From: Microvirga sp.
GTDB lineage: Bacteria; Pseudomonadota; Alphaproteobacteria; Rhizobiales; Beijerinckiaceae
DNA: 64,000 nucleotides
Reading direction: 5' to 3'
NCBI GenBank assembly: GCA_050789065.1
Contig: JBOZRS010000045.1
Span: forward strand, 73,875 to 137,874
Part shown: piece by piece, positions 28,382-41,661 of the stretch
Position numbering within the stretch: position 1 is the stretch's first letter
Layout of the letters: every line of letters starts with the position of its first letter
Position numbers and translations under genes: made by a program
Notes under the pieces: generated by a model
Told to the model about the DNA's origin: nothing
Databases searched by the model: none
What the model saw: the letters and a program-made list of their open reading frames with translations, nothing else

Positions 28382-29737
28382 CTAGACCGCGCGGGAGCGG
28401 CGTCGCGGAGCTGATTCTGCCATATGGGCTGTCGCGACGGCTTGATAGATGGCGAGGTGGGTCGTGTAGGCGTTCTCGTCGGCTTGCTGCCGGGAGCGGG
28501 ACAGTTCTGCCAGGGACGATCCCTCGGGAAGGGTTGCTCCATTCACGATTTCGGTGATGGCACGCGCCAAGGCACCTGCACTTCCGGCCGTGAACAGAAG
28601 ATCGACGCCTGGGCTCACCTTCTCCGCCATGCCCCCGATATCGGAGCAGAGCAGCGGCCGGCCAGCCATCCTGGCCTCCTGAATGACGATCGGTGAGTTC
28701 TCCCACCAGATCGACGGAACGACGATCCAGTCGGAGGCGGTCATCAGGTTGATCACATCCTGGTTCCGGTAGGCGCCCATCGGCCGGACGACATCGCCTG
28801 TCTTTGTGAGCAGGGTCTCCAATTTCTCCCCGAATTCACCCCCACGGTAATGCTTGTTCTCTCCATGGAGGCGGATTTCAATCCTGTCCTGGACGGGTTC
28901 AGGCAGCATCGTGGCGGCCTCGAGCAGGACGTCGACGCCCTTGTAGGGATTGATCTGGCCAAAAAAGGCGAAAACGATCCGCCTGTCGGGCATGGCTGCC
29001 GCTTGTGTCCTGCGCTGTCCGGCGCTGACGGGTGCCAAGACGACTTGCCGTTGGCTCTCGCTGAGAACGTCCTGATCCATGACATTCTCGATCACGGCGA
29101 TCTTCGTCGCAGGCAGGCCCCAGGCCACGTAACGCTTCTTGAGGAACTCGCTCGGCGATACGAAATCGTCCACATGACTCAGCAGCGATTGCAGGATCGT
29201 CTGCCGTACGAAGAACTTGCCTGCGCTCATCGACGGAATGCACAGAGAGCATTCCGCCGGGGAGGACGCGTAGCAGAGTCGCTTGTCGGTCTTGATCATC
29301 TGACCGTAATTGGCGCAGATCGCTGCATATTCGTGGAACGTGAAAACCACGCGAGCGCCCGCAGCCTTGAACAGCTCGAAGATCTCGATCCCCCAATAGA
29401 TGAAGTGGTGAATGTGAACCACATCAGGCCGAGTGGCTGCGACAAGCTCCTCGACAAGCTGTTTGAGCAGATCGTAGTTCAGACTCTGGAAGGTGAAGCC
29501 GTCCACGGGCGGCGGAGCGGCGAGGATCTCGTCGGGACGTCCCCGGAAACTGCCGAAGAAGGCGCTGTGCCCAATTGCCTCGTGCTCGGCCCGGGCCACG
29601 AAGACCGCATTCTCGATGCGCGAATCGTGCTTCAAACGCTGAAACAGGGAATAGGCTGCACGCTCGGCGCCGCCTGCGCCTAGATCGGGATGTCCGTGTG
29701 AAAGAACGAGCACACGCATGGAATAATCTGCTTTCAA
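28382..29737 (-). CDS. Glycosyltransferase, GT4 (GT-B fold) family
   Basis: MRVLVLSHGHPDLGAGGAERAAY N-domain, and a C-domain with the E-x7-E-like region (WWENSPIVIQEARMAGRP). The start could be the M7 codon at 29719. Confidence 0.8.
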   Translation of the reverse strand: MKADYSMRVLVLSHGHPDLGAGGAERAAYSLFQRLKHDSRIENAVFVARAEHEAIGHSAFFGSFRGRPDEILAAPPPVDGFTFQSLNYDLLKQLVEELVAATRPDVVHIHHFIYWGIEIFELFKAAGARVVFTFHEYAAICANYGQMIKTDKRLCYASSPAECSLCIPSMSAGKFFVRQTILQSLLSHVDDFVSPSEFLKKRYVAWGLPATKIAVIENVMDQDVLSESQRQVVLAPVSAGQRRTQAAAMPDRRIVFAFFGQINPYKGVDVLLEAATMLPEPVQDRIEIRLHGENKHYRGGEFGEKLETLLTKTGDVVRPMGAYRNQDVINLMTASDWIVVPSIWWENSPIVIQEARMAGRPLLCSDIGGMAEKVSPGVDLLFTAGSAGALARAITEIVNGATLPEGSSLAELSRSRQQADENAYTTHLAIYQAVATAHMAESAPRRRSRAV

Positions 29738-29767
29738 AAGATGACTGCGGCGAGATGTGTCGAGGAA

Positions 29768-31636
29768 CTAGGCTGGCGTGCGGCTGCCGACGCGGAACAC
29801 CCGCTTCGGCGGATCGAGATCCGTGGTCCAGCGCCTGTTAAACTCGGCGCAGTTCATGTAGGTCACCATGGCCCGGACATCCGTGTCTCCCATTCTTGGA
29901 ATCGACTGACGTTCCAGATGATAGAGGCCCGGATGCACATGAATCTCGATATCCGCTCCGGCGCGACGTGCCCTCAGGCACAGATCGGCATCTTCGAAAT
30001 CGCCTCGCTCGTAGGCGAGGTCGAAGCCGTCGAGCTCGGCATAGAATTCGGCCGAGAGCGCCAGAAGGGCCGCTGTTACGGCGGGCACTTTGCGGACCGT
30101 CTCTCCGCTGTAGAACCCGAAGGGCAGCCCCTTCATGGGGTGGTCGGCGACAAAGAGGCCGTTCATGAAAGACGAACGGCGAAATTCCATGCCGATATGC
30201 TGGATGGTGTTGTCTTCATAGAGAAGCGAAAAGCCGATCACTCCTTCGGGGCGCCCTGATCGCCGGCGCTCTCGGATGGCTTCCGCCGCAGCTTTCAACG
30301 GCTGCGCATCCATGACGAGAATGTCGGAATTCATGAGGAGAAGCACATCGCCTCGTGCAGCCGCCGCCCCGATGTTGTTGGCGCCTCCAAAGCCGTAATT
30401 GCCGAGATTTTGCAGGAGCTGCGTCGGGAGCCTGATGCCCTCGCTGCGCAAGGCAAGGCCGTTGTAGATCTCAGGCCATATCCGCGAGTCGTCCACGATA
30501 AGCACCAGCTCGAAACTGTCGTCCAACACGCGTTGGAGGTGATGGACGCAGTTGAGGAAGAAGGCGTCGCCGTAGAATGGGATGATGATCGATGTCAGAG
30601 GTCTCCCCTGGTGCGGAGCGGGACCAAAGGAGAACTTCTGCGCCGCCATAGCCCCTTTCGGGGTGGAGAGCGCAGGGCGGTAGAACGCGTCGATCCCGTC
30701 TGCATCCAGCGAGCGGATATCGCCAAAGGTGGAGCGGATGATGTCGAACGCGAGACGCTCGTCCTTTTGAACGGCCTTCTCCAGGGGGCCATGGAACGTC
30801 GTCCGAGATCCGTCCAGAGATGTCTCCACGAAGTAGAGATCTTGTCTTTCGCTGCCATCGGTGGGCATCACGAAAGTGAAGCCGTGCTCGTCCGAAGCCG
30901 AGGTCAGGGCGCCTAGATTGCTCAGATGGGCATGGACATCTCTTCGAGCGTGCCGCTCAAGGGCAGGGGAGAACAACCAGCTCCGCAGATCGCCGGTGAC
31001 GACGTGAACGGCGCGATCGGCCAGATTCGCCATCCAGCCCTTGACCACGAGCCCTGTCCCTGCCGAGACGAGGTGCTCGATCCAGAATTCGTCAGGGATC
31101 TTGAGCGGCTCGCAAGCAATGGACCCTTTCAGGATAGCCGCCTGTCGGTGCTGGCCTGCCCGGTCCAGGATTTGAGCGAGCACTCCCGCCTGGCCGGATG
31201 CCACAAGTTCCTGGATGTTCGGCGTTCCGACGCAAACGCGCTTTTGAACCTGCGGTCCTTTTGCGTCACGCAGCTCGACATCGATCAGCTGGCCTGCCTT
31301 CACGGTGGAGGCGGGTTTCTGCGGAATGAGAACCGCAAAGAGCCTGGTGGGCGCGCTCTCGGAATTCGAATGCTCGTACGTGGAGGCGGCTCTGCGTCCT
31401 CGTGACGGCGTAGAGGCACTGCCCTTGCGCCCCGGTTGGAGAGGGACCGCATTGTGAGCCTGCGGGGTGGCGAGCGATGCGCTCAGCCACTGACCGAAAG
31501 GCACGGTCAGGTGCACTTCGCCGCAATCCATGATGGCCGACATGTCGCCTGCCGAGTCTCCGGCAGGGCCGCGCACCATGAGCGCAGCAGCGTCGGAAAA
31601 CACAAGGATACTTTCAATATGCCAAGGTTCACTCAA
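29768..31636 (-). CDS. Glycosyltransferase family 2 (GT-A) with an unknown N-terminal region of about 330 aa
   Basis: C-terminal half carries TSIIIPFYGD...LVLIVDDS...YGFGGANNIGAAAARGDVLLLMNSDILV (DxD-type motif). TTG start at 31636 is preceded by GAGGA. I recognise nothing in the N-terminal half. Confidence 0.8.
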   Translation of the reverse strand: MSEPWHIESILVFSDAAALMVRGPAGDSAGDMSAIMDCGEVHLTVPFGQWLSASLATPQAHNAVPLQPGRKGSASTPSRGRRAASTYEHSNSESAPTRLFAVLIPQKPASTVKAGQLIDVELRDAKGPQVQKRVCVGTPNIQELVASGQAGVLAQILDRAGQHRQAAILKGSIACEPLKIPDEFWIEHLVSAGTGLVVKGWMANLADRAVHVVTGDLRSWLFSPALERHARRDVHAHLSNLGALTSASDEHGFTFVMPTDGSERQDLYFVETSLDGSRTTFHGPLEKAVQKDERLAFDIIRSTFGDIRSLDADGIDAFYRPALSTPKGAMAAQKFSFGPAPHQGRPLTSIIIPFYGDAFFLNCVHHLQRVLDDSFELVLIVDDSRIWPEIYNGLALRSEGIRLPTQLLQNLGNYGFGGANNIGAAAARGDVLLLMNSDILVMDAQPLKAAAEAIRERRRSGRPEGVIGFSLLYEDNTIQHIGMEFRRSSFMNGLFVADHPMKGLPFGFYSGETVRKVPAVTAALLALSAEFYAELDGFDLAYERGDFEDADLCLRARRAGADIEIHVHPGLYHLERQSIPRMGDTDVRAMVTYMNCAEFNRRWTTDLDPPKRVFRVGSRTPA

Positions 31637-31838
31637 GGGAATATCCTCGATCCGCAGGATATGATCCCAGGATCTGCAGCTATTAATCTTGCTGCTCCCT
31701 CTTCAACATTGAAGGCACTTGTCCGTCAAGTTTTTGTTATGTTATCAACGATCAAATAGTGGTTTAAAAGGAGAGGCACGAGGGCGCCGAGTGGCGGCCG
31801 GAACGTACGCGATGCCGGCTCCATGTATAGGTTCGAGG

Positions 31839-32699
31839 ATGGGCAAGATTGCGATACTGGTTCTGGGCAACCAGCAAGGAGCCACGATCAGGACATTCGC
31901 CCAGACATGCGGCGCTGAGCGTTTCAATTTTTACGTTCATCTCGATGCGAGGCGGGACCTGGAAGCATATTTCGGACCGGACCCAATGCCTTCGCATGTG
32001 CGGGCTATCGAGGAACGCTTTCCCATATATTGGGGCGGGTTCAACATGATCCGCGCGACAGAGGCATTGGCCTCACGCGCCTCCGCCGACCCGGACAATG
32101 AAGTCTTCGCTCTCGTCTCGGACGATTCCTTTCCCCTGCTTTCTCCTGATCGTTTGTACGATGCGATCATGACGGAGCCCCTCAGGATCGATACATGGCG
32201 AGCGCAGGATAATCAGAAGACAATTGATCGCTACGCCCACTTCTTCCATTTCGACAGCCTTCACGGCCATGCACGGCATCTTGAGCCCGAGCAGCGGTTC
32301 ATCCGCTTGCAGGACTTCCAAGTCTACGAGCGCCTGCCGCGACTGATGGAGCGTGGCAAGTACCCGATCACGCTTCACTCCGGGAGCCAGTGGTGGATCA
32401 TGCCGCGGCGGATCCTGAGCGAATGCCTGGCCCAGCTTTCCCAGAATCTTCATCTGCGGGAATCGTTCGAGTTCTCCGCGATTCCGGACGAACTTGCATT
32501 TCAGACGCTTGTCAGGGCGATCGTGCCTGCCGACGTGAAGGTGCCGCCGTCGGCCATGTGCTATGACTTCTCGAAAGCCCCGAAGCCGTTCGTCTATTCC
32601 AGTCTCGATGAACTCGATCCCAAGCTCACGACAGGAAAGCTCTTCATCAGGAAGGTCAAGCACGACACCGCTTTTCTGGAGGCGCTTCTGGCGCGGTAG
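31839..32699 (+). CDS. GT14 / Core-2-I-branching ('Branch' domain)-like glycosyltransferase
   Basis: Three family-like motifs in the right order: LVSDDSFPL, YWGGFNMIRATEAL, SGSQWWIMPRRIL. Start ambiguous (31719 TTG, 31812 or 31839 ATG). Confidence 0.6.
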   Translation: MGKIAILVLGNQQGATIRTFAQTCGAERFNFYVHLDARRDLEAYFGPDPMPSHVRAIEERFPIYWGGFNMIRATEALASRASADPDNEVFALVSDDSFPLLSPDRLYDAIMTEPLRIDTWRAQDNQKTIDRYAHFFHFDSLHGHARHLEPEQRFIRLQDFQVYERLPRLMERGKYPITLHSGSQWWIMPRRILSECLAQLSQNLHLRESFEFSAIPDELAFQTLVRAIVPADVKVPPSAMCYDFSKAPKPFVYSSLDELDPKLTTGKLFIRKVKHDTAFLEALLAR

Positions 32700-32705
32700 A
32701 GATTG

Positions 32706-33545
32706 ATGAAGACTGATCCCATCAAATTTCTCGAGAATAGATTCGGACGAAGCGCACGCTTTCGCTTCATGCCCAATGGCGGCAATCTCGGCGACAACCT
32801 GATTGCAGCAGCGACCATCCAACGTCTCGACCGAAGCGGACTTCGTTGGGAGTTCATGCGCGGGGGGAAGGAGACGGTTTCGAATGAGGATGTCCTCATT
32901 TACGGGGGAGGGGGCAGCCTCGTCGACCTTTATCGGGGAGGGATCGATTGCGTTCGCTTTCTCCAGAGCCTGGGGCGACCTGTCGTGGTCCTCCCGCAGA
33001 CGGTTCGCGGGCACCAGGACTTTTGGGAAGCATGTCTACCCCTCACTCTTTTCTGCAGAGATCAGGTCTCTTTCGATTATGCATCCCGTTACAAGCAGAT
33101 CGAGGTTCTGGCTGCCGATGATATGGCAACGCACCTTGATATGGACGATCCGCTCTTTCACCCGATCGTGACATATCACAAGCACATGACGGCTCGGGAT
33201 GAGATGGCCGGGCGCAGTCTGAATGCGTTCAGGAGAGACGGCGAATCGAGCGCCTCCGATCTGGCGGCAAAGGGCTCTGTCGATCTATCGGAATTGTCGT
33301 TTCCAAGGCTCAAGGACAAGACCGACATATATGCGTCCGCTGTTCTCTTCCTTATGTCAGCAGCAGGACATCGGCTCGTTCGCACCGACCGGCTGCATGT
33401 CAGTGTCGCGGCCAGTTTGGTGGGTGCCGAAGTCGAATTGTTCGACAACAACTACGGAAAGAACGGAGATGTGTTTCGTTTTACACTGAGAGATCGCTTT
33501 CCTAAGATCATTTATCATGGCTATAATTTTCGACAAACGTCGTGA
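32706..33545 (+). CDS. Polysaccharide pyruvyl transferase family protein
   Basis: N-terminal GGNLGDNLIAAAT (the GNxGD motif of CsaB/WcaK/ExoV-type enzymes) and central YGGGGSL. Starts 7 nt after the GT14-like stop. Confidence 0.6.
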   Translation: MKTDPIKFLENRFGRSARFRFMPNGGNLGDNLIAAATIQRLDRSGLRWEFMRGGKETVSNEDVLIYGGGGSLVDLYRGGIDCVRFLQSLGRPVVVLPQTVRGHQDFWEACLPLTLFCRDQVSFDYASRYKQIEVLAADDMATHLDMDDPLFHPIVTYHKHMTARDEMAGRSLNAFRRDGESSASDLAAKGSVDLSELSFPRLKDKTDIYASAVLFLMSAAGHRLVRTDRLHVSVAASLVGAEVELFDNNYGKNGDVFRFTLRDRFPKIIYHGYNFRQTS

Positions 33546-33560
33546 ATGATGCGCGGGCCT

Positions 33561-33660
33561 ATCTGATAAATAAATAACAGTATACTTAGATATAATACTT
33601 TAATTTATATGAGATAGGCATCTTTAAAGATGATTCTAAATTAATTTATATTACCCTTTT
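33561..33660 (+). promoter_or_regulatory. Extremely AT-rich promoter/operator region upstream of the RTX-T1SS operon
   Basis: 19 G+C in 100 nt by hand count. Perfect 14-bp palindrome CATCTTTAAAGATG (33619-33632) flanked about 20 bp each side by direct repeats TAATTTATAT (33601-33610, 33642-33651). TATAAT at 33591-33596. Confidence 0.6.
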
Positions 33661-33794
33661 GGGTTGCAAGCGGCTGTTGCTCCAGCGTCACAGGTTCGGG
33701 GATCGTTCAAACAGGGCTTGCAATTGTCGCAAGCAACGTGATAACAGATAAAAATAACCAAAACAGACCACGCAATGTGATAAAGGGGGCTTTA

Positions 33795-34796
33795 ATGGCT
33801 ACTGTGGCTGGTGCATTTTTCCAAGGTTCTGCCTCACCTGAGGCGAGCAGCTATCTCCTTGGCAATATCCCGGGCAGCTACCGGAATGCGACGCTCGTGA
33901 CCAATGATGCGAGCGCGAAGACCGGTTCGCAGACCGTGACGGGGACCAAGGGGTCGGACTACGTCATCCTCGGGGCGGGCGACAAGCTCGGAAAGCTCAA
34001 GGGCGTCGCGAAGGGCTATGACATTGTCCAGACGGAAGGCAGCATCAATATCGACAAGACGGGCTTCAAGGGCGTTCTCCTGACCGGAAGCGCGAATGCC
34101 AAGGTGATCGGAAGCACTGCCGCCGACAACATCGTTGGCAATAGCGGCAGCAATCTCGTCAAGGCTGGTGTTGGCAACGACGTGGTAGATGGCGGTGCGG
34201 GCAACGACACGATCTATGGTGACGTCGGTAACGATAAGCTGTTCGGCGGCGCTGGCGACGACAAGCTGTTCGGTGGGGTCGGCAACGACATTGTCGACGG
34301 CGGTGCGGGCAACGACACGATCTTCGGCGACGTGGGTCACGATATCCTGACGGGCGGCGCTGGCGACGACAAGCTGTTGGGCGGCGTCGGTAACGACAAG
34401 GCTGATGGTGGCGCCGGCAATGACTACCTGGACGGCATGGTCGGCAACGACCGCCTCTTCGGCGGCGAAGGTGATGACCGGCTCTTCGGCGGCGACGGTC
34501 GAGATACGCTCATCGGTGGCTCTGGAAGCGATTTCCTGAAGGGCGGCAAGGGCAGCGACAAGTTCTTCATCGAGAAGAGCGCGCCGGCTGACATCGATAC
34601 GATCGCCGACTTCAAGCCGAAGGAAGACCTGATCGACCTGTCCGGCACTGCAGCTCACACTTCGAAGATGGACGGCCTCCAGCTTCAGTCCGACGGCCAT
34701 GGCAACACCATTGTGACCGTCAAGGAAGATGGAACGCAGTTCAAGCTCCTGGGCTTCAATCCCAACGAGATCAAGAGCTCGTTCTTCCATTTCTGA
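33795..34796 (+). CDS. Secreted RTX (hemolysin-type Ca-binding nonapeptide repeat) protein, 333 aa
   Basis: About 14-17 consecutive GGxGxDxUx repeats (e.g. GGAGNDTIY, GGAGDDKLF), then the usual capping segment DTIADFKPKEDLIDLS. No N-terminal signal peptide. ATG 33795 has AAGGGGG 7 nt upstream. Confidence 0.9.
   Translation: MATVAGAFFQGSASPEASSYLLGNIPGSYRNATLVTNDASAKTGSQTVTGTKGSDYVILGAGDKLGKLKGVAKGYDIVQTEGSINIDKTGFKGVLLTGSANAKVIGSTAADNIVGNSGSNLVKAGVGNDVVDGGAGNDTIYGDVGNDKLFGGAGDDKLFGGVGNDIVDGGAGNDTIFGDVGHDILTGGAGDDKLLGGVGNDKADGGAGNDYLDGMVGNDRLFGGEGDDRLFGGDGRDTLIGGSGSDFLKGGKGSDKFFIEKSAPADIDTIADFKPKEDLIDLSGTAAHTSKMDGLQLQSDGHGNTIVTVKEDGTQFKLLGFNPNEIKSSFFHF
34188..34511 (+). repeat. Three tandem 108-bp (36-aa, four-nonapeptide) super-repeats inside the RTX gene
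   Basis: Units start at 34188, 34296 and 34404 (DGGAGNDTIYGDVGNDKLFGGAGDDKLFGGVGNDIV / DGGAGNDTIFGDVGHDILTGGAGDDKLLGGVGNDKA / DGGAGNDYLDGMVGNDRLFGGEGDDRLFGGDGRDTL). Confidence 0.8.
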
Positions 34797-34799
34797 ACA

Positions 34800-36836
34800 A
34801 TGTCTGACGGGACAAATAGCGGGTTGTCTTTCCGGTCTGAGGCCGGGGAGGCAACCCTTCTCTTTGTGATGCCGCACTCGGCCGATACGGCTTATGTCTG
34901 GTGTCCTGCGGCCAAGCTGCCGTCAATTGCCGCCATAGCGGCCAATGGGCAGCCTTGCGAGGTTCTCGCGCGAAGGAAGCTGATACAGCCCGGCAATACC
35001 CTCGAAATACTGCTTGTGAGGAGCCGTGAACTCCAGGACGGCGCTCTCTGCGAGTTGCATTTCGATAAGAACGAGCGCTCGCCACTCGCGACAGTGGCTC
35101 GTCTTGCCCGGTGGGACAGCCCCCACACGAGACGCGTCCTGCGCATTGTGGCCGATCGCTTCAACGTCGATCAAGATCCGCCTCGTACACTTGAGCGGTA
35201 CCTCGCCTTTATCAGCCTGTGGCAGATTCCAGGACGCGTTCAGGCTCTTCTGCCTGAAGGGGTCGTGTTCGAGGCCGAGATCGCTAGCGAAGGCAGTCTC
35301 AATGCCTACGTCATGACGATGCAGGGGGTGCGGCGAATAACATTGACCCCTCTTTCGGCAGGACCGGGCAGGCGATTGTTCTGGCTCCCAGGTTACCACC
35401 CTCAGCAGTTCTATCTCGAGGCGGATGCGGAATTGACCAGAGTCGTTCTGGACAATACCGGGAATCCATACCGGCCGGCATCGGAAAACGACCTCGGCCT
35501 CGTCGAATCTCTTCATGGCCTGAACGTCTGTTCTGAAGCCGCCACGGCCTGGGTCAGGAAGCTTTGCCCGCGTCAGGCCGAATTGCGCATCGACGACACG
35601 GCTTACCGCATTCTGGGTTCCGGCGATCTGCCATCCGGTCGCACCGTCATCTTCATCGAGGTGAGCGGGCGCGCCTATGCCCACGTGGAGTTCAGGCTTC
35701 ATTCTTTTGGAGTGGAAGAGTCCGCGCAGATCAACGTAACAGCCCGTGAAACGGACGGATCGCCGAACGATCGTCCTTGTACGCAGATCCTCGTCGAAGC
35801 TCCCGACATGAGGCAGACCGGCGCTTACCGGCTTAGCTGGGTTCACGACGGCGAGCCGCAATACCTTTGGGTCAGAGGGAGCGAGATCGCCGAGCGGCCG
35901 ATGCAAGCTCTGGTCAGGGATTTCGCGCCTCTCGCATTTCTCGATACCGATTTATTTGGCAACGTCTTTCACCCCATTGCGACGGCAAGTTCCCGTTCCG
36001 CCGAGGCGGCGCTCGTTCATAGGGAGGAGTTCGGAGGCAGGTCCCGAGACGCTTGCGCTGAACTCCTTATCCTAGCGGACGGTGATGTCGAGGCAGTGCA
36101 TAGGACGTTGATCGCTCTCTCGCTCTCGAGCCGTGAAACTGCGTTTGATGTGCACATTTGCTTTTTCGACAGGTCGTTGATTGCTCTTCTTACAAGCAAA
36201 GCAAAGCAATGGTCAGCGCTCTACGGATTGAGACTAACCGTTAACTGCTTTAACGCCTGGGTGCCGGAGTCTTTCTTAGTACGTTTCAATTTCGGCGCGC
36301 CACTTCCCCGTGTCATCTGCCGAGCAGGTTTCATTCCCTGTCGAGTTGATTGGCTTGAGTGCACCTTGAAAGATTTGGAACTGAGTTGCGGGATTCTGCT
36401 GGGGAGTGCATCGAGTAGGACGGACTCGCGCGCACGTGAAATCAGCCGTACCGCGCTGCGGAAATTAATTGGCGAAGTCGAATCCGGCACGAACTACGGC
36501 ATAACATCTGCTGCTCTGCTGCCACATCTTGGAAGTATTGATCCAGAAGTCCAATTCCACGGCTTCGAATCGTATGTTCTGGCCCTGGCGTTGTCTCTCT
36601 CCGAAGGTGAAAAAGTCCGAAGCTCACAGGGCCTCCGAATGTCGGATAGTGCCGGACGGCCTGAAACGGAAACATTCGAAGCCAGGCTGGATCGGTATAG
36701 CCTGCAGGAATTGTGCAGACGCTGGGCACCTGTGAAGGCAAGGCAGACGAAGGGTGCCAACCCGCTGTCGCCTGAGAAAGCCGCTTCCCGCAATCACACA
36801 CAAAGATTAGGCAATGAGCAACCCCATCTATCATGA
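34800..36836 (+). CDS. Hypothetical 678-aa cytoplasmic protein between the RTX substrate gene and the T1SS ABC gene
   Basis: Starts 4 nt after the RTX stop and overlaps the ABC gene by 23 nt. No signal peptide, TM or RTX repeats, and no family recognised. Residues around ELLILADGD...FDVHICFFD loosely resemble a GT-A beta-alpha-beta start, but no DxD motif. Confidence 0.65.
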   Translation: MSDGTNSGLSFRSEAGEATLLFVMPHSADTAYVWCPAAKLPSIAAIAANGQPCEVLARRKLIQPGNTLEILLVRSRELQDGALCELHFDKNERSPLATVARLARWDSPHTRRVLRIVADRFNVDQDPPRTLERYLAFISLWQIPGRVQALLPEGVVFEAEIASEGSLNAYVMTMQGVRRITLTPLSAGPGRRLFWLPGYHPQQFYLEADAELTRVVLDNTGNPYRPASENDLGLVESLHGLNVCSEAATAWVRKLCPRQAELRIDDTAYRILGSGDLPSGRTVIFIEVSGRAYAHVEFRLHSFGVEESAQINVTARETDGSPNDRPCTQILVEAPDMRQTGAYRLSWVHDGEPQYLWVRGSEIAERPMQALVRDFAPLAFLDTDLFGNVFHPIATASSRSAEAALVHREEFGGRSRDACAELLILADGDVEAVHRTLIALSLSSRETAFDVHICFFDRSLIALLTSKAKQWSALYGLRLTVNCFNAWVPESFLVRFNFGAPLPRVICRAGFIPCRVDWLECTLKDLELSCGILLGSASSRTDSRAREISRTALRKLIGEVESGTNYGITSAALLPHLGSIDPEVQFHGFESYVLALALSLSEGEKVRSSQGLRMSDSAGRPETETFEARLDRYSLQELCRRWAPVKARQTKGANPLSPEKAASRNHTQRLGNEQPHLS

Positions 36837-38523
36837 CGCCGACGTAAAGGCCGCGCTCGGAGCATGCAGGAAGCATTTTGCTTATGCGGTTGTCTTCGAT
36901 GCGTTTCTCAACGTTCTCATGCTGGCCTATCCGGTTTATCTCTACCAGATCTATGACCGCGTCATTCCGGGCAAGAGTTGGGAAACTCTCGTCGCTCTGC
37001 TGATTGGGCTGACGATCGCGGTCTCGGCAAAAGCTGTGTTTCAGTGGGTGAAGGGAACCCTCCTCGTGAGGGCATCCGCACGCATTGAGCGAAGGCTTGC
37101 AGACAGGCTGTTTCGGATCATCATCCGACGCTCAGCGGAAGGTGCAGGGGTGAGGGATGCGCAGCTCATGCGAGACCTCGACAGCTATCGGCAATTCGTG
37201 ACCGGAAAGGGTGCTCTTGCGGCGCTGGATCTACCGTGGGGCTTCCTGTTCCTGGGAGTGATCATGGTCGTCGACCCGCTGATCGGCACTGTTGCGACCA
37301 TCGCCATGATGATCTCCGGAGCCGCGACCATCGCCAATACGCTCGCAACCAAACGCGCCTTGGTCAGGGCGAATGTCATCGGCAACTCGTCCCAGCAATT
37401 CGGCGATTCAGCCGCCCGGGCGGCTGAGGCGGTCGTAGGCCTGGGCATGCTGAATGGAGTGGTCAGGCGCTGGCGCCGTGAGCGTGACAAGGCGATCCGA
37501 GAGCAATTCATCGCCAGCGGCCGAGGCGTTCTGTTCTCCTCATTCCTGAGCTCGGCGCGCATGTTGATGCAGGGGGCAATCCTCGCCATCGGCGCGGTCC
37601 AGGTCATCAATAATCACATCCCGGTCGGAGCCGTCTTTGCCTCGATCATGGTGTTCCAGTATGCCATGAAGCCCATCGATCAACTCGTGGCGGCGTGGGA
37701 CGAATATCCCCCCGTCAGAGAGGCGATGCGGCGGATCGATGCTGCCCTGTCCCGCGCCGCCGAACCGGCGATCAATCTCCACCTGCCTAAGCCTGCCGGT
37801 ACGATCACGTGTCAGGACTTGGTCTATGTTCCGCCTGGTTCCGACAGGGCCGTGTTGAGGCGCATCAGTTTCACCTTGCAGGCCGGAGAAACACTGGGCC
37901 TTCTGGGGTTGAACGGTTCGGGCAAGACCACGCTGGCGCGGATTCTCACCGGCAGTCTTCGGCCGACAAGCGGTTCCGTTCGGGTCGACGGGGCCGAAAT
38001 CGACCAATGGGACAACGATCAGTTCTGTTCATTCATCGGGTACCTGCCGCAGAACGTGAGTCTTCTGCCGGGCACTGTTGCTGACAATATCGGGCGGTTC
38101 GGCCGCTTCTCCGATGAGGACATCGTCGAAGCTGCCAGGAAGGCGCGGGTCCATGATCTGATCCTGCGTATGCCGAAAGGATACGAAACGCCGCTTGACG
38201 ACATGAATTTCTCAGGCGGGCAGCGGCAGCTGATCGCACTGGCCCGAGCCATTGTGGGCCAACCCTCCTTTGTGGTTTTGGACGAACCCAATTCCAACCT
38301 GGACGGTCCCGGCGAGGAGGCCCTGATCGCGTGCGTTCAAGCGCTCAAGCATGACGGCTGTACGGTCATCCTGATCACGCACCGGCCGAATCTCGTTCAT
38401 CATCTCGATCACGCTGCCGTTCTGCGTGACGGATCGATCTCAAACTACGGCACGACATCGGAGATCTTCCAGCAACTGGGTCGCCCGACCGTGGTCAAGA
38501 ACACAGGCAACGCCCATGCATAG
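36814..38523 (+). CDS. Type I secretion system ABC permease/ATPase (PrtD/AprD/HasD type, no C39 or CLD domain)
   Basis: 569 aa. N-terminal 6-TM domain, Walker A GLNGSGKTT, signature FSGGQRQ, Walker B FVVLDEPNSNLD, H-loop ITHR. Confidence 0.9.
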   Translation: MSNPIYHDADVKAALGACRKHFAYAVVFDAFLNVLMLAYPVYLYQIYDRVIPGKSWETLVALLIGLTIAVSAKAVFQWVKGTLLVRASARIERRLADRLFRIIIRRSAEGAGVRDAQLMRDLDSYRQFVTGKGALAALDLPWGFLFLGVIMVVDPLIGTVATIAMMISGAATIANTLATKRALVRANVIGNSSQQFGDSAARAAEAVVGLGMLNGVVRRWRRERDKAIREQFIASGRGVLFSSFLSSARMLMQGAILAIGAVQVINNHIPVGAVFASIMVFQYAMKPIDQLVAAWDEYPPVREAMRRIDAALSRAAEPAINLHLPKPAGTITCQDLVYVPPGSDRAVLRRISFTLQAGETLGLLGLNGSGKTTLARILTGSLRPTSGSVRVDGAEIDQWDNDQFCSFIGYLPQNVSLLPGTVADNIGRFGRFSDEDIVEAARKARVHDLILRMPKGYETPLDDMNFSGGQRQLIALARAIVGQPSFVVLDEPNSNLDGPGEEALIACVQALKHDGCTVILITHRPNLVHHLDHAAVLRDGSISNYGTTSEIFQQLGRPTVVKNTGNAHA

Positions 38524-39847
38524 CCACTCACAATCCGCCGTTGCCGTCGAACCTGCTCAGCCGTTCCCGGACACCGCTTCCGGACCAATCATCGTAGGCG
38601 GCCTTACTGCCATTGCGCTTTTGCTTAGCGTGACGGGTTGGTCGTCCGTCATGTCGGTGTCGAGCGCAGCCATAACAACGGGGCGGGTGACCGTCGAAGG
38701 GAACCGCAAGGCCGTTCAGCATCGGGATGGAGGCCCTGTCGGTGCCGTTTTCGTGCGCGAAGGGCAACTTGTACAGCATGGCCAGAAACTCGTTCAGCTT
38801 GAACTACCTGATGTGAAAGCCGAAGTCGAAGTCCTGAAGCATGGCAGTGATGCCGCTCTGTTCAGAGCCGCGCGACTGCAGGCTGAGCGGGCGGATTCCA
38901 GCACGTTTGAATTCCCACTTCCGTTCGTCGGCCGCTCTCAGGATCCGCAGCTTCAAATGCTGTTCCAACAGGAGAAGGCACTGCTCGAGGCGCGCCGTGC
39001 AGCCTATCTCGGACAGGTCAGCCTCCTCAATCAGCAAATTGGGGGCAGCAGCCGTCAGATTGCGGCCCTCGAAGGGCGTCTGAAAGCTGCACAGACGCAG
39101 CTCGACAGCATTGAGGACGAGTTGAACTCCCTTCGCCCTCTGCAGGAGAAGGGCCTGATCGCCCGCCCCAGAACCTTGTCGCTTGAGCGGGCAGCCGCAT
39201 CCCTCCGAGGCGATATTGAAGCGGTTCTCGGACTGAGCGCCGCGGAACATGACAAGATCCGTGCTGCCGAGATTCAAATTGGGCAGCTGACAAAAGAGCG
39301 GGTGGAACTCATCGCACGGGAGAGTGCCGACAATGACGCAAGGCTCGCAGAAATCGAGCCGCGTTTGGTTTCTGCCGAACGGCGCCTGGCGAGTAGTGTC
39401 ATTTTGGCTCCCGAAGCCGGATACGTCTATGGCCTGACGGTGTTCGGACCAGGCGCCACCCTCGTTCCCGGCCAAACGGCGCTGGAGATCGTTCCGGTCA
39501 ACGATCAGATGGTGGTCTCGATCGACATTGAGCCGACGGACGTGAAGCGCGTTCATCCGGGGCAGATTGCGAGCATCAATCTGCTTCCTTACCGCCAGCG
39601 TTATCAGAAGGCGATCACGGGAACGCTCGAGAAGGTGTCTGCGGATCTTTTCGAGGACAAAGCAACAGGGAAGGCCTATTACAAGGGGACGGTCCGTGTG
39701 AGCTCGAACGACCTGAAAGCTGCCGGAGCGGAGCTGACTCCCGGCATGCCGGCGCAGGTGACCGTCGAGACCGGAAAGCGCACCATCCTCGCGTATTTCC
39801 TCGATCCGATCCTCAAGATCTACGATTTCGCTCTAAAGGAACAATAG
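38516..39847 (+). CDS. Type I secretion membrane fusion protein (HlyD family)
   Basis: ATG 38516 overlaps the ABC stop. One N-terminal TM (IIVGGLTAIALLLSVTGW), a long coiled-coil, barrel domains, and C-terminal RTILAYFLDPILK. Confidence 0.9.
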   Translation: MHSHSQSAVAVEPAQPFPDTASGPIIVGGLTAIALLLSVTGWSSVMSVSSAAITTGRVTVEGNRKAVQHRDGGPVGAVFVREGQLVQHGQKLVQLELPDVKAEVEVLKHGSDAALFRAARLQAERADSSTFEFPLPFVGRSQDPQLQMLFQQEKALLEARRAAYLGQVSLLNQQIGGSSRQIAALEGRLKAAQTQLDSIEDELNSLRPLQEKGLIARPRTLSLERAAASLRGDIEAVLGLSAAEHDKIRAAEIQIGQLTKERVELIARESADNDARLAEIEPRLVSAERRLASSVILAPEAGYVYGLTVFGPGATLVPGQTALEIVPVNDQMVVSIDIEPTDVKRVHPGQIASINLLPYRQRYQKAITGTLEKVSADLFEDKATGKAYYKGTVRVSSNDLKAAGAELTPGMPAQVTVETGKRTILAYFLDPILKIYDFALKEQ

Positions 39848-39855
39848 GGGGCATC

Positions 39856-40119
39856 ATGTCGACACCACGAACAGCACAAGCAGGCGAGGTGGCCTCGGGC
39901 AGGCCGGTCAACCTGGAAGGGGACAGCCCGGAGCTCGTTGCATTCGCACTGCTTCGCTATCTTGCCCAGCTTGAGCAGGGCCAGGCAGGCATTTCGTTCG
40001 ACAGAGAATGGCTTCTCGATGCGTATACGGATTGCCTGCAGGCCGTGAAAGGTCAGCGGGGGGGCGGAAGCCGGGCGGGGAAAGCCACCTCGACGAACAT
40101 CGCGAAAGGGCGGAGCTAG
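39856..40119 (+). CDS. Hypothetical 87-aa protein, last gene of the T1SS operon
   Basis: ATG lies 9 nt after the MFP stop with TAGGGGG 5 nt upstream. Predicted helical core (PELVAFALLRYLAQLEQ...WLLDAYTDCLQAV) and a basic Gly-rich tail. No family recognised. Confidence 0.55.
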   Translation: MSTPRTAQAGEVASGRPVNLEGDSPELVAFALLRYLAQLEQGQAGISFDREWLLDAYTDCLQAVKGQRGGGSRAGKATSTNIAKGRS

Positions 40120-40128
40120 AGCCTCGGC

Positions 40129-40152
40129 CCCAAAAGTGGACCCACTTTTGGG
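40129..40152. repeat. Perfect 11-bp inverted repeat CCCAAAAGTGG / CCACTTTTGGG
   Basis: Seen directly, 10 nt after the stop of the 87-aa ORF. No T-run follows. Confidence 0.6.
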
Positions 40153-40181
40153 ATCAGCTCCGATGCTCCTTCTCCGGGCTG

Positions 40182-40251
40182 GCGCATCGTTCGGGGCGGA
40201 AAACCGGATCCACTTTTCGCTGACGCGGACCTCCGGTTCCGAACGATGCGC
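40182..40251. repeat. 70-bp palindromic element with 13-bp terminal inverted repeat (GCGCATCGTTCGG / CCGAACGATGCGC)
   Basis: Seen directly. The loop contains a second CCACTTTT motif (ATCCACTTTTCGC). Confidence 0.6.
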
Positions 40252-40332
40252 TAAGTGGCTGGGCACAAAGCGACGGATGATTCCGTATAATGTGCAAGCC
40301 TCCGTCGGTGACATGACGGGTTTCATGCGCAA

Positions 40333-40362
40333 GGGACGCTTATCGGCGTCCCTTTTGCATTT
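40333..40362 (+). terminator. Rho-independent terminator, probable end of the T1SS operon transcript
   Basis: Stem GGGACGC / GCGTCCC, loop TTATCG, followed by TTTTGCATTT. Abuts the stop of the convergent GT4 gene. Confidence 0.65.
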
Positions 40363-41590
40363 AAGGAAGAAGCTCTCGCAGCAGATCCTCATAGGCCGGG
40401 AGAGATACCGTTTTGAAGTCGAACTGCTCGGTTGCCGTTGTGCGGGCACCGGCAGAGATCCGCTCGCGCAATCCGCGATCGTCGATGAGTTCGACGATCC
40501 TGTCGGCGAGCTCCCTTGCGCCGAAGAAATCGGTCAGGAGCCCGTTCTGCCCATCCCGGATGATCTCCTCGACGGGCGGCGTTGCAGAACCGACAATGGC
40601 GCAGCCGCAGGCCATGGCATCGAGAAGAGACCATGACAGGACGAACGGATAAGTCAGATAGACATGCACCGTTGAGAGACGGAACAGGTTGAGCAGGTCG
40701 CCATAGGGAAGCGTTCCAAGGAAGTGCAGGCGCTCGGGATCGACGGCATTTCCGACCTCCGCAAGAAGCGCCTCCTTCCAGGTCCCCCCCTTGGGCGGAT
40801 TGCGCCCGTAGCTTGCAGGCTCTTTACCGACGACGACTACCTGGACCTCTGGGTGCATTTTCTGCAGATGCGGGACAGCGCGCATGAAAGTGTGAAAACC
40901 CCGGTACGGCTCCAGCGATCGCGCCACATAGGTCACGACGGGTTGTCCAGTATGGAGCGTCAGCCCGGACGGCATCGTGATGGGCGAAGCAGCACCGGGA
41001 GACGCCACAGAGGTATCGATCCCCTCGTGAATAATGCGGATCCGTCGAGACAAGGCTCCAGGAAAGGTTTCAGCCTGCCACCGTGTCGACGAGACCAGCG
41101 CGTCCGACAGCGCGGCCGCTTGCAGCGTCGGGAGATTGCGCAGGGAAACATAGTCCAGATCGGCGGGTGACGCGGGAAACTCGGGATCGAACTCCAGTTC
41201 GCTTCCGCTGTTGCGGTAACCATATTCCATATGAGAGACGATCTTCGTGTCCGGAAACACGTCCCTGAGGAAGATCGCTTCTCCCCATCCGGGATGAACG
41301 AAGCAGATGTCGGGCGTGAAGCCTCGCTGCTTCAATTCAACGAGCCGCCAACGCGCCAGGTCACCGCGTCGTACCTGCTCCGAGAAGAACGTCAGAGGCG
41401 GAAAGAGATCTGCATTGCGGTCGGGCCCGGAACTGTAGCCCACATATTCCACCGGGCCGGGATCGAATCCGAAAGGCGATTTTTGCCCCAGCGCCACCAC
41501 TCGAAATTCTTCCCGACGGCCAAGCTCGCGAGACAGGAGCTTGTATTGCCCGGGAAAATTCTGGTGGATGAACAGGACGTTGATGGTCAT
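40361..41590 (-). CDS. Glycosyltransferase, GT4 (GT-B fold) family
   Basis: Start MTINVLFIHQNFPGQYKLL (ATG 41590). C-domain with HFLGTLPYGDL...VHVYLTYPFVLSWSLLDAMACGCAIVGS, typical of group-1 glycosyltransferases. Confidence 0.8.
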   Translation of the reverse strand: MTINVLFIHQNFPGQYKLLSRELGRREEFRVVALGQKSPFGFDPGPVEYVGYSSGPDRNADLFPPLTFFSEQVRRGDLARWRLVELKQRGFTPDICFVHPGWGEAIFLRDVFPDTKIVSHMEYGYRNSGSELEFDPEFPASPADLDYVSLRNLPTLQAAALSDALVSSTRWQAETFPGALSRRIRIIHEGIDTSVASPGAASPITMPSGLTLHTGQPVVTYVARSLEPYRGFHTFMRAVPHLQKMHPEVQVVVVGKEPASYGRNPPKGGTWKEALLAEVGNAVDPERLHFLGTLPYGDLLNLFRLSTVHVYLTYPFVLSWSLLDAMACGCAIVGSATPPVEEIIRDGQNGLLTDFFGARELADRIVELIDDRGLRERISAGARTTATEQFDFKTVSLPAYEDLLRELLP

Positions 41591-41661
41591 TTGCGCTCCA
41601 GTGGCGGGTGCTCCACATGTATCCGCCACCGGTTTTGTAAATCAAGGATATAACAGGTCAA

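Follow-up and report, generated by a model that had tools for sequence, protein, structure and literature searches.

What role is played by a large protein of no recognized family whose gene sits between that of a presumed secretion cargo and that of the exporter? The question is raised by a 64,000-nucleotide stretch of DNA from Microvirga sp. (assembly GCA_050789065.1, contig JBOZRS010000045.1, positions 73,875 to 137,874), called the window below and numbered from its first letter. Its forward strand carries an open reading frame (ORF) for a 678-aa protein, placed between the gene of a small repeats-in-toxin (RTX) protein and the ATP-binding cassette (ABC) gene of a type I secretion system (T1SS). 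We find that this protein belongs to a previously unclassified family of pseudo-glycosyltransferases (pseudo-GTs), which holds a fixed site between the cargo and transporter genes of a T1SS-linked polysaccharide system of the exp type, known from Sinorhizobium. From the data below we infer that catalysis has been lost, that the protein acts as a scaffold or adaptor, and that its expression is attenuated by a hairpin. The gene and its parts are as follows.

34800-36836, forward strand: putative pseudo-GT, 678 aa, cytoplasmic, with three beta-sandwiches and a degenerate GT-A domain (ORF, AlphaFold2 [AF2] model, hhalign to the ExpE6 family)
34821-34867, forward strand: terminator-like hairpin with a T-rich tail, codons 8-23 of the ORF (folding, covariation)
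34857-35105, forward strand: beta-sandwich 1, aa 20-102 (AF2 secondary structure, immunoglobulin [Ig]-like Foldseek matches)
35220-35453, forward strand: beta-sandwich 2, aa 141-218 (AF2, Foldseek)
35577-35882, forward strand: beta-sandwich 3, aa 260-361, part of the region homologous to ExpE6 (AF2, hhalign)
36012-36734, forward strand: predicted GT-A-fold domain, aa 405-645 (Foldseek against BFVD, hhalign to ExpE2 and ExpE6)
36321-36329, forward strand: R508-A509-G510, position equivalent to DxD (family alignment, hhalign, anchor in PDB 5hea)

The TGA stop codon of the RTX gene (34794-34796) is followed by the three bases aca and then by the ATG of the 678-aa ORF, which no obvious Shine-Dalgarno sequence precedes. 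At the other end, the ABC gene starts with the ATG at 36814 and overlaps the ORF by 23 nt; the ABC N terminus from this ATG is also kept in relatives. The ORF and both junctions thus agree with a preliminary description of this DNA, as do three features of the protein: it has no N-terminal signal peptide, no RTX motif (the adjacent RTX protein has 11 GGxGxD-like motifs), and no transmembrane-like segment, its Kyte-Doolittle maximum over 19 residues being 1.18 versus 2.16 for the ABC protein. Pfam and NCBIfam searches both gave no match. The protein contains 14 Cys (6 to 15 within the family) and has a pI of 6.2, while the C-terminal tails of the family are often rich in Arg and vary in both length and sequence. 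Judged by its sequence, that is, by the cysteine content, the lack of transmembrane segments and RTX repeats, and the frequent Arg-rich tail, the protein looks cytoplasmic. The GC content of its gene (0.573) is not the lowest among the coding stretches, as had been supposed, because those of a pyruvyl transferase gene (0.541) and a GT14-like gene (0.568) of the same cluster are lower.

Having no N-terminal signal peptide, the protein could itself be a second T1SS cargo, namely an extracellular Ig-domain glycan-binding protein; tandem Ig-like domains are common among surface proteins, and the disordered C-terminal tail would also fit. We consider this highly improbable, since the RTX cargo contains no Cys at all, the 678-aa protein has no RTX repeats, and the Arg-rich, unconserved tails differ from the conserved SSFF[HQ]F end of the RTX protein; with respect to cysteines, RTX motifs, and tail it does not qualify as a T1SS substrate, and the candidate was rejected. 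The protein resembles HlyC/CyaC in being a cytoplasmic accessory protein encoded beside an RTX substrate gene. However, there is no relationship in sequence or fold: the pseudo-GT is about four times larger and consists of GT-A and Ig-like domains, and the cargo in the window is a small calcium-binding protein like ExpE1 and NodO rather than a pore-forming toxin. The lack of similarity to the HlyC family noted earlier is therefore upheld, and an HlyC-like activator was rejected (no Pfam or NCBIfam match, 678 aa versus ~170 aa, a different fold). Two further candidates were also discarded: a decaying relic, since 58 clusters have an intact ORF and the fold is confidently predicted, and an alternative start at Met24, just 3' of the hairpin, where homologues have Ile and which would truncate the first beta-strand.

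The AF2 model computed with 35 family members (pLDDT 86, pTM 0.80; with four sequences, the pLDDT was 51) displays three beta-sandwiches with a short helical linker after each, an alpha/beta domain at residues 405-645, and a disordered tail. When the model was compared with the PDB using Foldseek, antibody Fabs dominated the matches, which shows the sandwiches to be Ig-like but masks the GT-A domain. Against BFVD, both Ig-domain proteins and many GT2/GT-A proteins were retrieved, with a probability of 1.00 over 230-310 columns and target TM-scores of up to 0.59. On the strength of these GT2/GT-A matches, the last third of the protein is predicted to be a GT-A fold, as the preliminary description had suspected. 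The best-conserved part of the pseudo-GT is sandwich 1 together with the helical hairpin at aa 103-140, with identities in the close group of 41% and 56%, respectively. Within the GT-A domain, the N-terminal half (beta1-beta4) is conserved, and the C-terminal half, on the acceptor side, is the most divergent part of the whole protein.

The GT-A domain lacks motifs typical of GT2/GT-A enzymes. Beta4 ends in R508-A509-G510-F-I-P513, and all 35 aligned members display the pattern x-[A/S]-G-x-[V/I]-P at this place, with G510 invariant; none of the 35 has a DxD or any acidic residue there, in agreement with the absence of DxD noted earlier. The position is anchored twice: the "LMNSDI" of GT2ext, the family of the extended GT2 protein encoded at 29768-31636, aligns with "FVDSDD" of GalT1, a GT2 enzyme of solved structure (PDB 5hea), and "NSDVVPSAPGW" of ExpE2 aligns with "RAGxVPxxxxW" of the pseudo-GT. 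The N-S-D is invariant in the GT2ext family and corresponds to the D-S-D of GalT1. The acidic residue that ends beta2 is not conserved across the 35-member alignment either, and the catalytic-base "YED" motif of GT2ext, ExpE2, and ExpE6 has no counterpart in it; the C-terminal half of the pseudo-GT retains only a T-[FL]-E-G strand and the near-invariant D631. By fold, then, the protein belongs with GT2/GT-A, while curated GT models do not recognize the family: Pfam GT models gave no match to any of the 35 members at E <= 0.1.

These observations bear directly on the possibility that the protein is an active, noncanonical GT-A enzyme that is metal independent, the place of the metal being taken by Arg508 or other basic residues, and that primes or modifies the RTX protein or starts a glycan before export. 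Such a role would suit a module with three to five GTs in which an initiating phosphoglycosyl transferase, a flippase, and a polymerase are all missing and the pseudo-GT gene is the one that always adjoins the RTX gene; moreover, the GT-A motif that is conserved best lies at the beta1/alpha1 position, where nucleotides are bound, and R-A-G often keeps its Arg. Yet this Arg is lost in distant members, no acidic residue is shared family-wide at the end of beta2, at the DxD position, or in the catalytic-base region, the acceptor-side half is the least conserved region, and neither "YED" nor a match to a Pfam GT model is found. An active enzyme thus appears unlikely to us.

Where the pseudo-GT comes from was asked with profile comparisons. 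It had been suggested by eye that it might be a catalytically dead paralogue of the 622-aa GT2 protein at 29768-31636. Compared directly, the two are not linked: BLASTP gave no match, and hhalign of the pseudo-GT family against the GT2ext family gave a nonsignificant probability of 1.1%, although this single match pairs residues 364-526 of the pseudo-GT with residues 292-454 of the GT2, the same segments that had been named. The connection is provided by two proteins of the Sinorhizobium exp/wg galactoglucan cluster. The catalytic domain of the GT2 matches 70 pSymB-type replicons of Sinorhizobium within this cluster, and the matched gene, which encodes 749 aa and directly follows the RTX gene expE1, is expE2/wgeB; hhalign of the GT2ext family with ExpE2 reached 99.8% (E 2e-29). 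The second protein represents the ExpE6-like family, unannotated "hypothetical" proteins of 720-760 aa that occupy the place of ExpE6/WgeF in Sinorhizobium, Azospirillum, Chelatococcus, and Phyllobacterium. The pseudo-GT family matches the ExpE6-like family at 95.5% (E 1.4e-8, 207 columns), and the ExpE6-like family matches the GT2ext family at 98.1% (E 9e-14). Pseudo-GT and ExpE2 are also linked over beta1-beta4 (62%, E 7.5e-5), with a HMMER cross-match.

With the option "-M first", residues 268-529 of the pseudo-GT aligned with residues 313-592 of ExpE6 (94.5%, 258 columns, score 70.7), while 40 shuffled controls scored at most 21.9 with probabilities of at most 0.4%, and a reversed alignment scored 20.2. 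Global and permissive runs extended the match to ~620-640 columns at 94-97%, with a score no higher than that of the 268-535 core. In addition, HMMER cross-matches between ExpE6 and ExpE2 have E values of 1e-30 to 1e-48, and the ExpE6 hidden Markov model directly detects the pseudo-GT of one locus, L022 (E 7e-11). These comparisons identify ExpE6 as a DxD-less paralogue in the ExpE2/GT2ext lineage. Because of the hhalign series, the shuffle controls, and the HMMER cross-matches, a chain of descent from an active GT2 (ExpE2/GT2ext) via ExpE6 to the pseudo-GT is well supported at the profile level for the third sandwich, the linker, and the N-terminal half of the GT-A domain. The idea of a dead paralogue is largely right on structure and ancestry, since the GT-A fold, the loss of DxD, and the GT2 ancestry stand, while its setting in a classical RTX operon does not (see below).

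ExpE6/WgeF is in several ways the nearest known likeness of the pseudo-GT. The two are similar in size (720-760 aa versus 600-705 aa), no Pfam family exists for either, they are homologous over the third beta-sandwich, linker, and GT-A N-half, and both have lost DxD (S-A-S or S-P-S in ExpE6, R-A-G in the pseudo-GT) ahead of a common V/L-P-x-x-x-x-W motif; both are clustered with a T1SS, an RTX protein, an ExpE2-type GT2, and GT4 enzymes. They differ in that no BLAST-level similarity connects them, that ExpE6 keeps "YED" and "KG-DL-LRL" in the C-terminal GT-A half while the pseudo-GT family has neither, and that the ExpE6 gene lies four genes downstream of expE1 and not between cargo and ABC genes. 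ExpE2/WgeB shares with the pseudo-GT the order of an N-terminal beta-rich extension and a GT-A domain, and its gene directly follows expE1 in S. meliloti; in contrast to the pseudo-GT, ExpE2 and GT2ext match PF00535 and keep N-S-D, "YED", and "FEDADLCLR". In S. meliloti ml56, the ExpE6/WgeF frame is interrupted (a 542-aa ORF versus 742 aa in strain 2011; the WgeF regions compared were 21674-23900 of L018, from ml56, and 21675-23903 of L017), and the gene is also absent from the PLSDB gene table; in this strain it may be a pseudogene.

How far the family and its setting extend was established with sequence searches. Among 5.8 billion clusters, a word-indexed search picked up no more than three relatives (30-35% identity). 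With an exhaustive profile search, which covered 1.84 billion representatives, 58 family members were recovered, mostly 600-705 aa long, 24 of them with E <= 1e-30; the count refers to cluster representatives at 50% clustering. The protein is thus not strictly the orphan it had been called. No further members were found by a word-indexed profile search with the 35-sequence alignment, phmmer and profile searches of PDB sequences gave noise only (E >= 0.3), and tblastn against 72,556 plasmids found Microvirga pMVF16-4 alone, a 550-kb plasmid of Microvirga sp. VF16 whose homologue is labeled "hypothetical" by NCBI. All named sources of the family are Microvirga (Methylobacteriaceae).

We compared 13 independent loci: the window, L002, L006-L009 (L008 being the pMVF16-4 locus, fetched again with annotation as L016), L010, L012-L015, L022, and L023. 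The family members of L010 and L012-L015 are only 15-20% identical, and L022 and L023 were reached independently, via the 87-aa protein described below. An orthologous small RTX gene lies directly upstream of the pseudo-GT gene in all 13 loci, its products sharing an N-terminal motif and the SSFF[HQ]F C-terminal end, and the ABC gene follows directly in 12, the exception being L013, in which a GerE regulator and a small ORF intervene. A gene for an HlyD-type membrane fusion protein (MFP) comes after the ABC gene wherever the contig suffices (the short L015 contig ends inside it). The distances range from -23 to +83 nt between RTX stop and pseudo-GT start and from -23 to +55 nt between pseudo-GT stop and ABC start. 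In all 13 loci, the homologues thus lie in the RTX and T1SS context in which the protein was first noticed. A precomputed Pfam table gives no family for four of the upstream proteins (L002 8877-10001, L006 3268-4575, L022 2712-3896, and L023 804-1877); with 7-11 GGxGxD motifs, all four are clearly RTX proteins, and a dash in the table should not be read as absence of a domain. Identities between loci are 30-35% for the pseudo-GT but 64-69% for ABC protein and MFP, 50-68% for the GTs, and 48-60% for the RTX protein; on these figures, the pseudo-GT is evolving faster than its partners.

The constant neighborhood could also be read as that of a dedicated secretion chaperone or targeting adaptor, which would keep the RTX cargo unfolded and deliver it to the ABC protein, the GT-A domain being a leftover without a role in sugar chemistry. 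The tight coupling of its translation to that of the cargo and transporter genes, the RTX-pseudo-GT-ABC adjacency in 12 of the 13 loci, the cytoplasmic features, a rapid evolution like that of the variable RTX N terminus, and a PrtD-type ABC protein of 569 aa without an additional substrate-binding N-domain are all compatible with this. On the other hand, exp-type clusters secrete ExpE1 via ExpD1/D2 with the ExpE6 gene several genes away from expE1, so that adjacency is unnecessary in the sister system; the pseudo-GT family is always accompanied by GT genes, and the N-terminal GT-A half is among the better-conserved regions, which is unexpected for a functionless relic. We regard a pure chaperone, too, as improbable.

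Expression of the pseudo-GT appears to be set by more than the two junctions. The first 20 codons of the ORF contain a hairpin (34821-34857) with a 17-bp stem, 10 pairs of which are G-C, and a predicted dG of -36.9 kcal/mol (z = -3.7). When folded separately, L002, L006, L007, L009, L022, and L023 each showed a hairpin in this position; in L008 the same stem was seen in the alignment, and L010 has a long hairpin without U-tract. The stem sequences differ between loci, with compensatory double changes in 7 of 17 pairs of a six-sequence alignment. The stem coincides with codons of disordered N-terminal residues, and the U-tract with those of a conserved Leu-Phe-Val in the first beta-strand. An Rfam scan of the window gave no match. 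The arrangement resembles the attenuator between hlyA and hlyB, and the hairpin is probably an attenuator placed after the RTX gene that determines how strongly RTX protein is expressed relative to the T1SS, which suggests that RTX transcript would be present in excess of pseudo-GT and transporter transcript. The claim that the gene is coexpressed with those of the RTX and ABC proteins is accordingly upheld by the junctions but qualified by this terminator-like hairpin.

The surrounding cluster spans 28382-41629 and lies between genes for a MiaB-like methylthiotransferase and a CMD-family protein. In order it encodes GT4a (reverse), the ExpE2-like GT2 (reverse), a GT14-like protein, a pyruvyl transferase, the RTX protein, the pseudo-GT, the ABC protein, the MFP, the 87-aa protein, and GT4b (reverse). 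Apart from the pseudo-GT, the genes are the following.

28382-29737, reverse strand: GT4a, similar to ExpE7 and ExpE4 (40% and 37% identity, respectively)
29768-31636, reverse strand: extended GT2 (GT2ext), 622 aa, ExpE2/WgeB homologue of the catalytically intact paralogue lineage (hhalign)
31719-32699, forward strand: GT14 "Branch"-like gene, variable part of the cluster
32703-33545, forward strand: polysaccharide pyruvyl transferase, variable part of the cluster
33795-34796, forward strand: ExpE1-like small RTX calcium-binding protein, presumed T1SS cargo (PF00353 with E 4e-48, 36% identity to S. meliloti ExpE1)
36814-38523, forward strand: PrtD-type T1SS ABC permease/ATPase, ExpD1-like (TIGR01842 with 543 bits, 36% to ExpD1)
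38516-39847, forward strand: HlyD-family T1SS MFP, ExpD2-like (TIGR01843, 28% to ExpD2)
39856-40119, forward strand: conserved 87-aa protein, fifth gene of the module, directly after the MFP gene (58-71% identity across loci)
40361-41629, reverse strand: GT4b with PF12000 N-domain (37% to the GT4 beside the MarR regulator in the exp cluster)

The RTX protein (333 aa, pI 4.5, C terminus SSFFHF) is encoded by the only RTX ORF of the window. In tblastn searches against the exp region of pSymB, the window's ABC protein, MFP, RTX protein, GT2 (33% identity in the GT2 domain), and both GT4 proteins all found homologues, while the 678-aa protein gave no BLAST-level match there. The gene content is thus that of an exp/wg-type cluster, and the profile links between GT2 and ExpE2, ExpE6 and GT2, and pseudo-GT and ExpE6 point the same way; on these grounds we regard the locus as a compact relative of the Sinorhizobium exp/wg (EPS II, exopolysaccharide II) cluster and not as a toxin operon. 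The classical RTX operon with an HlyC-like slot that served as reference in the preliminary description is therefore the wrong comparison. S. meliloti needs ExpD1/D2, the secretion system of ExpE1, to produce EPS II (PMC1403797), and the exp cluster comprises 22 genes, with six putative GTs (PMC3233446). The two systems differ in layout: in exp, the T1SS genes come first, followed by expE1 and expE2, while in the window the pseudo-GT gene separates cargo and transporter genes; the exp cluster is also much larger, with a MarR regulator and DUF6212, while the window's module is compact and adds the 87-aa protein.

Other loci vary the same theme. In Microvirga relatives, the variable part is replaced by rmlC/B/A, and in L012 sulfotransferases stand there; because these replace the pair of GT14-like and pyruvyl transferase genes, the sugar chemistry varies while the core is constant. 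A PF12000-type GT4 gene occurs near the module in relatives, along with further GTs. L014 (1-18013) consists of eight codirectional genes (RTX, pseudo-GT, ABC, MFP, small ORF, GT4, GT2, GT4) flanked by transposases, with a gene for a TolC-like OEP nearby. The module looks mobile, being flanked by insertion sequences (ISs) in L014 and borne on a plasmid in VF16. The GC content at third codon positions is 0.61-0.76 in the window's cluster, mostly below that of the genes on its left flank (0.74-0.87).

The 87-aa protein is probably the fifth component of the module. Its gene follows the MFP gene in most loci, and it is better conserved than the 678-aa protein; the family comprises 75 clusters, all "hypothetical," with no named source other than Microvirga. 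Pfam gave no match, and no counterpart was found in exp-type loci; a small hypothetical ORF after the Azospirillum MFP gene was considered as one and proved unrelated.

Some further genes were seen near the module. Small genes encoding PilZ domains lie a few kb downstream in two Microvirga-type loci (L016 23997-24257 and L022 16862-17266), which hints at control of the module by cyclic di-GMP; none was seen beside the window's cluster. L022 (1-1314) and L023 (12633-14381) carry serralysin-like RTX metalloprotease genes (Peptidase_M10_C plus HemolysinCabind) near the module, and because of these, further T1SS cargoes may exist at the two loci. On the VF16 plasmid, genes for a flagellin and a second pyruvyl transferase lie just upstream of the GT2ext orthologue (L016 2434-3771, reverse strand).

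We propose that the pseudo-GT descends from the lineage of extended GT2 enzymes of the ExpE2/WgeB type via the DxD-less ExpE6/WgeF branch, and that, its metal-binding DxD having become R-A-G, it would no longer transfer sugar. It would now serve as a noncatalytic subunit or adaptor of the glycan-assembly machinery, in which a nucleotide-sugar, the nascent glycan, or the active paralogue is held by the degenerate GT-A pocket, by the beta-sandwiches, or by both, and it may in this way link the building of the glycan with the RTX protein and the T1SS. The amount of pseudo-GT would be governed by translational coupling to the RTX gene and by the attenuator hairpin, which would let RTX transcript outnumber that of pseudo-GT and transporter. 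A conceptual parallel is GtfB (Gtf2) of streptococcal serine-rich-repeat adhesin glycosylation, a noncatalytic GT paralogue that partners the active GtfA; here, too, an inactive GT paralogue would stand beside an export system as a substrate-binding or activating partner. GtfB differs in having a GT-B fold and in belonging to the accessory Sec system of Gram-positive bacteria, and homology to the pseudo-GT is not expected.

We give an even chance to this account as a whole, that is, a cytoplasmic pseudo-GT acting as a noncatalytic subunit or adaptor in a compact, hairpin-attenuated exp-type module. Several observations weigh against it. The family has kept a D-x-E-A-L-H-R-T motif at the beta1/alpha1 nucleotide-binding position, an Arg frequently precedes A-G at the DxD position, and since metal-independent GT-A enzymes exist, the loss of DxD is not proof of inactivity. 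The homology to ExpE6 is established only for residues ~268-535, and the remainder of the protein is compatible with it. In L010, no ExpE2-type GT2 was seen within 8 kb, so that an obligate partnership with this paralogue is not universal in these data. In addition, WgeF is not among the six putative GTs counted in the exp cluster (PMC3233446), and a literature search on the function of WgeF/ExpE6, with the primary exp papers outside its scope, found nothing relevant.

It is tempting to go one step further and to assume that the pseudo-GT is the physical coupler of an unrecognized export route, in which soluble GTs build a glycan without Wzx/Wzy, Wzm/Wzt, or a synthase and the T1SS and RTX protein export or assemble it. 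We consider this a distinctly long shot, more doubtful than the account just given. If true, the ABC transporter would receive the glycan, or a complex of glycan and RTX protein, from the pseudo-GT, and the eight-gene, IS-flanked module of L014 would be a self-contained mobile cassette for T1SS-dependent glycan secretion.

For the dependence of galactoglucan (EPS II) synthesis in S. meliloti on the ExpD1/D2 T1SS and its RTX cargo ExpE1, the sources we found give no mechanism (PMC1403797, PMC3233446), and wgdA and wgdB are described in a review only as "potentially engaged" in polymerization (PMC3233446). The smaller version of the system keeps the T1SS, the RTX protein, one ExpE2-type GT2, two GT4 enzymes, the 87-aa protein, and a DxD-less GT-A paralogue. 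Because even this compact module retains such a protein, our results point to pseudo-GTs of the ExpE6/WgeF type as core parts of the machinery and not incidental genes. With its 8 to 10 genes, the module would lend itself to reconstitution, which makes the T1SS dependence of galactoglucan-type exopolysaccharides experimentally tractable. For T1SS biology, the family provides a candidate class of conserved cytoplasmic accessory proteins beyond the acyltransferases, together with a predicted conserved attenuator inside a coding sequence.

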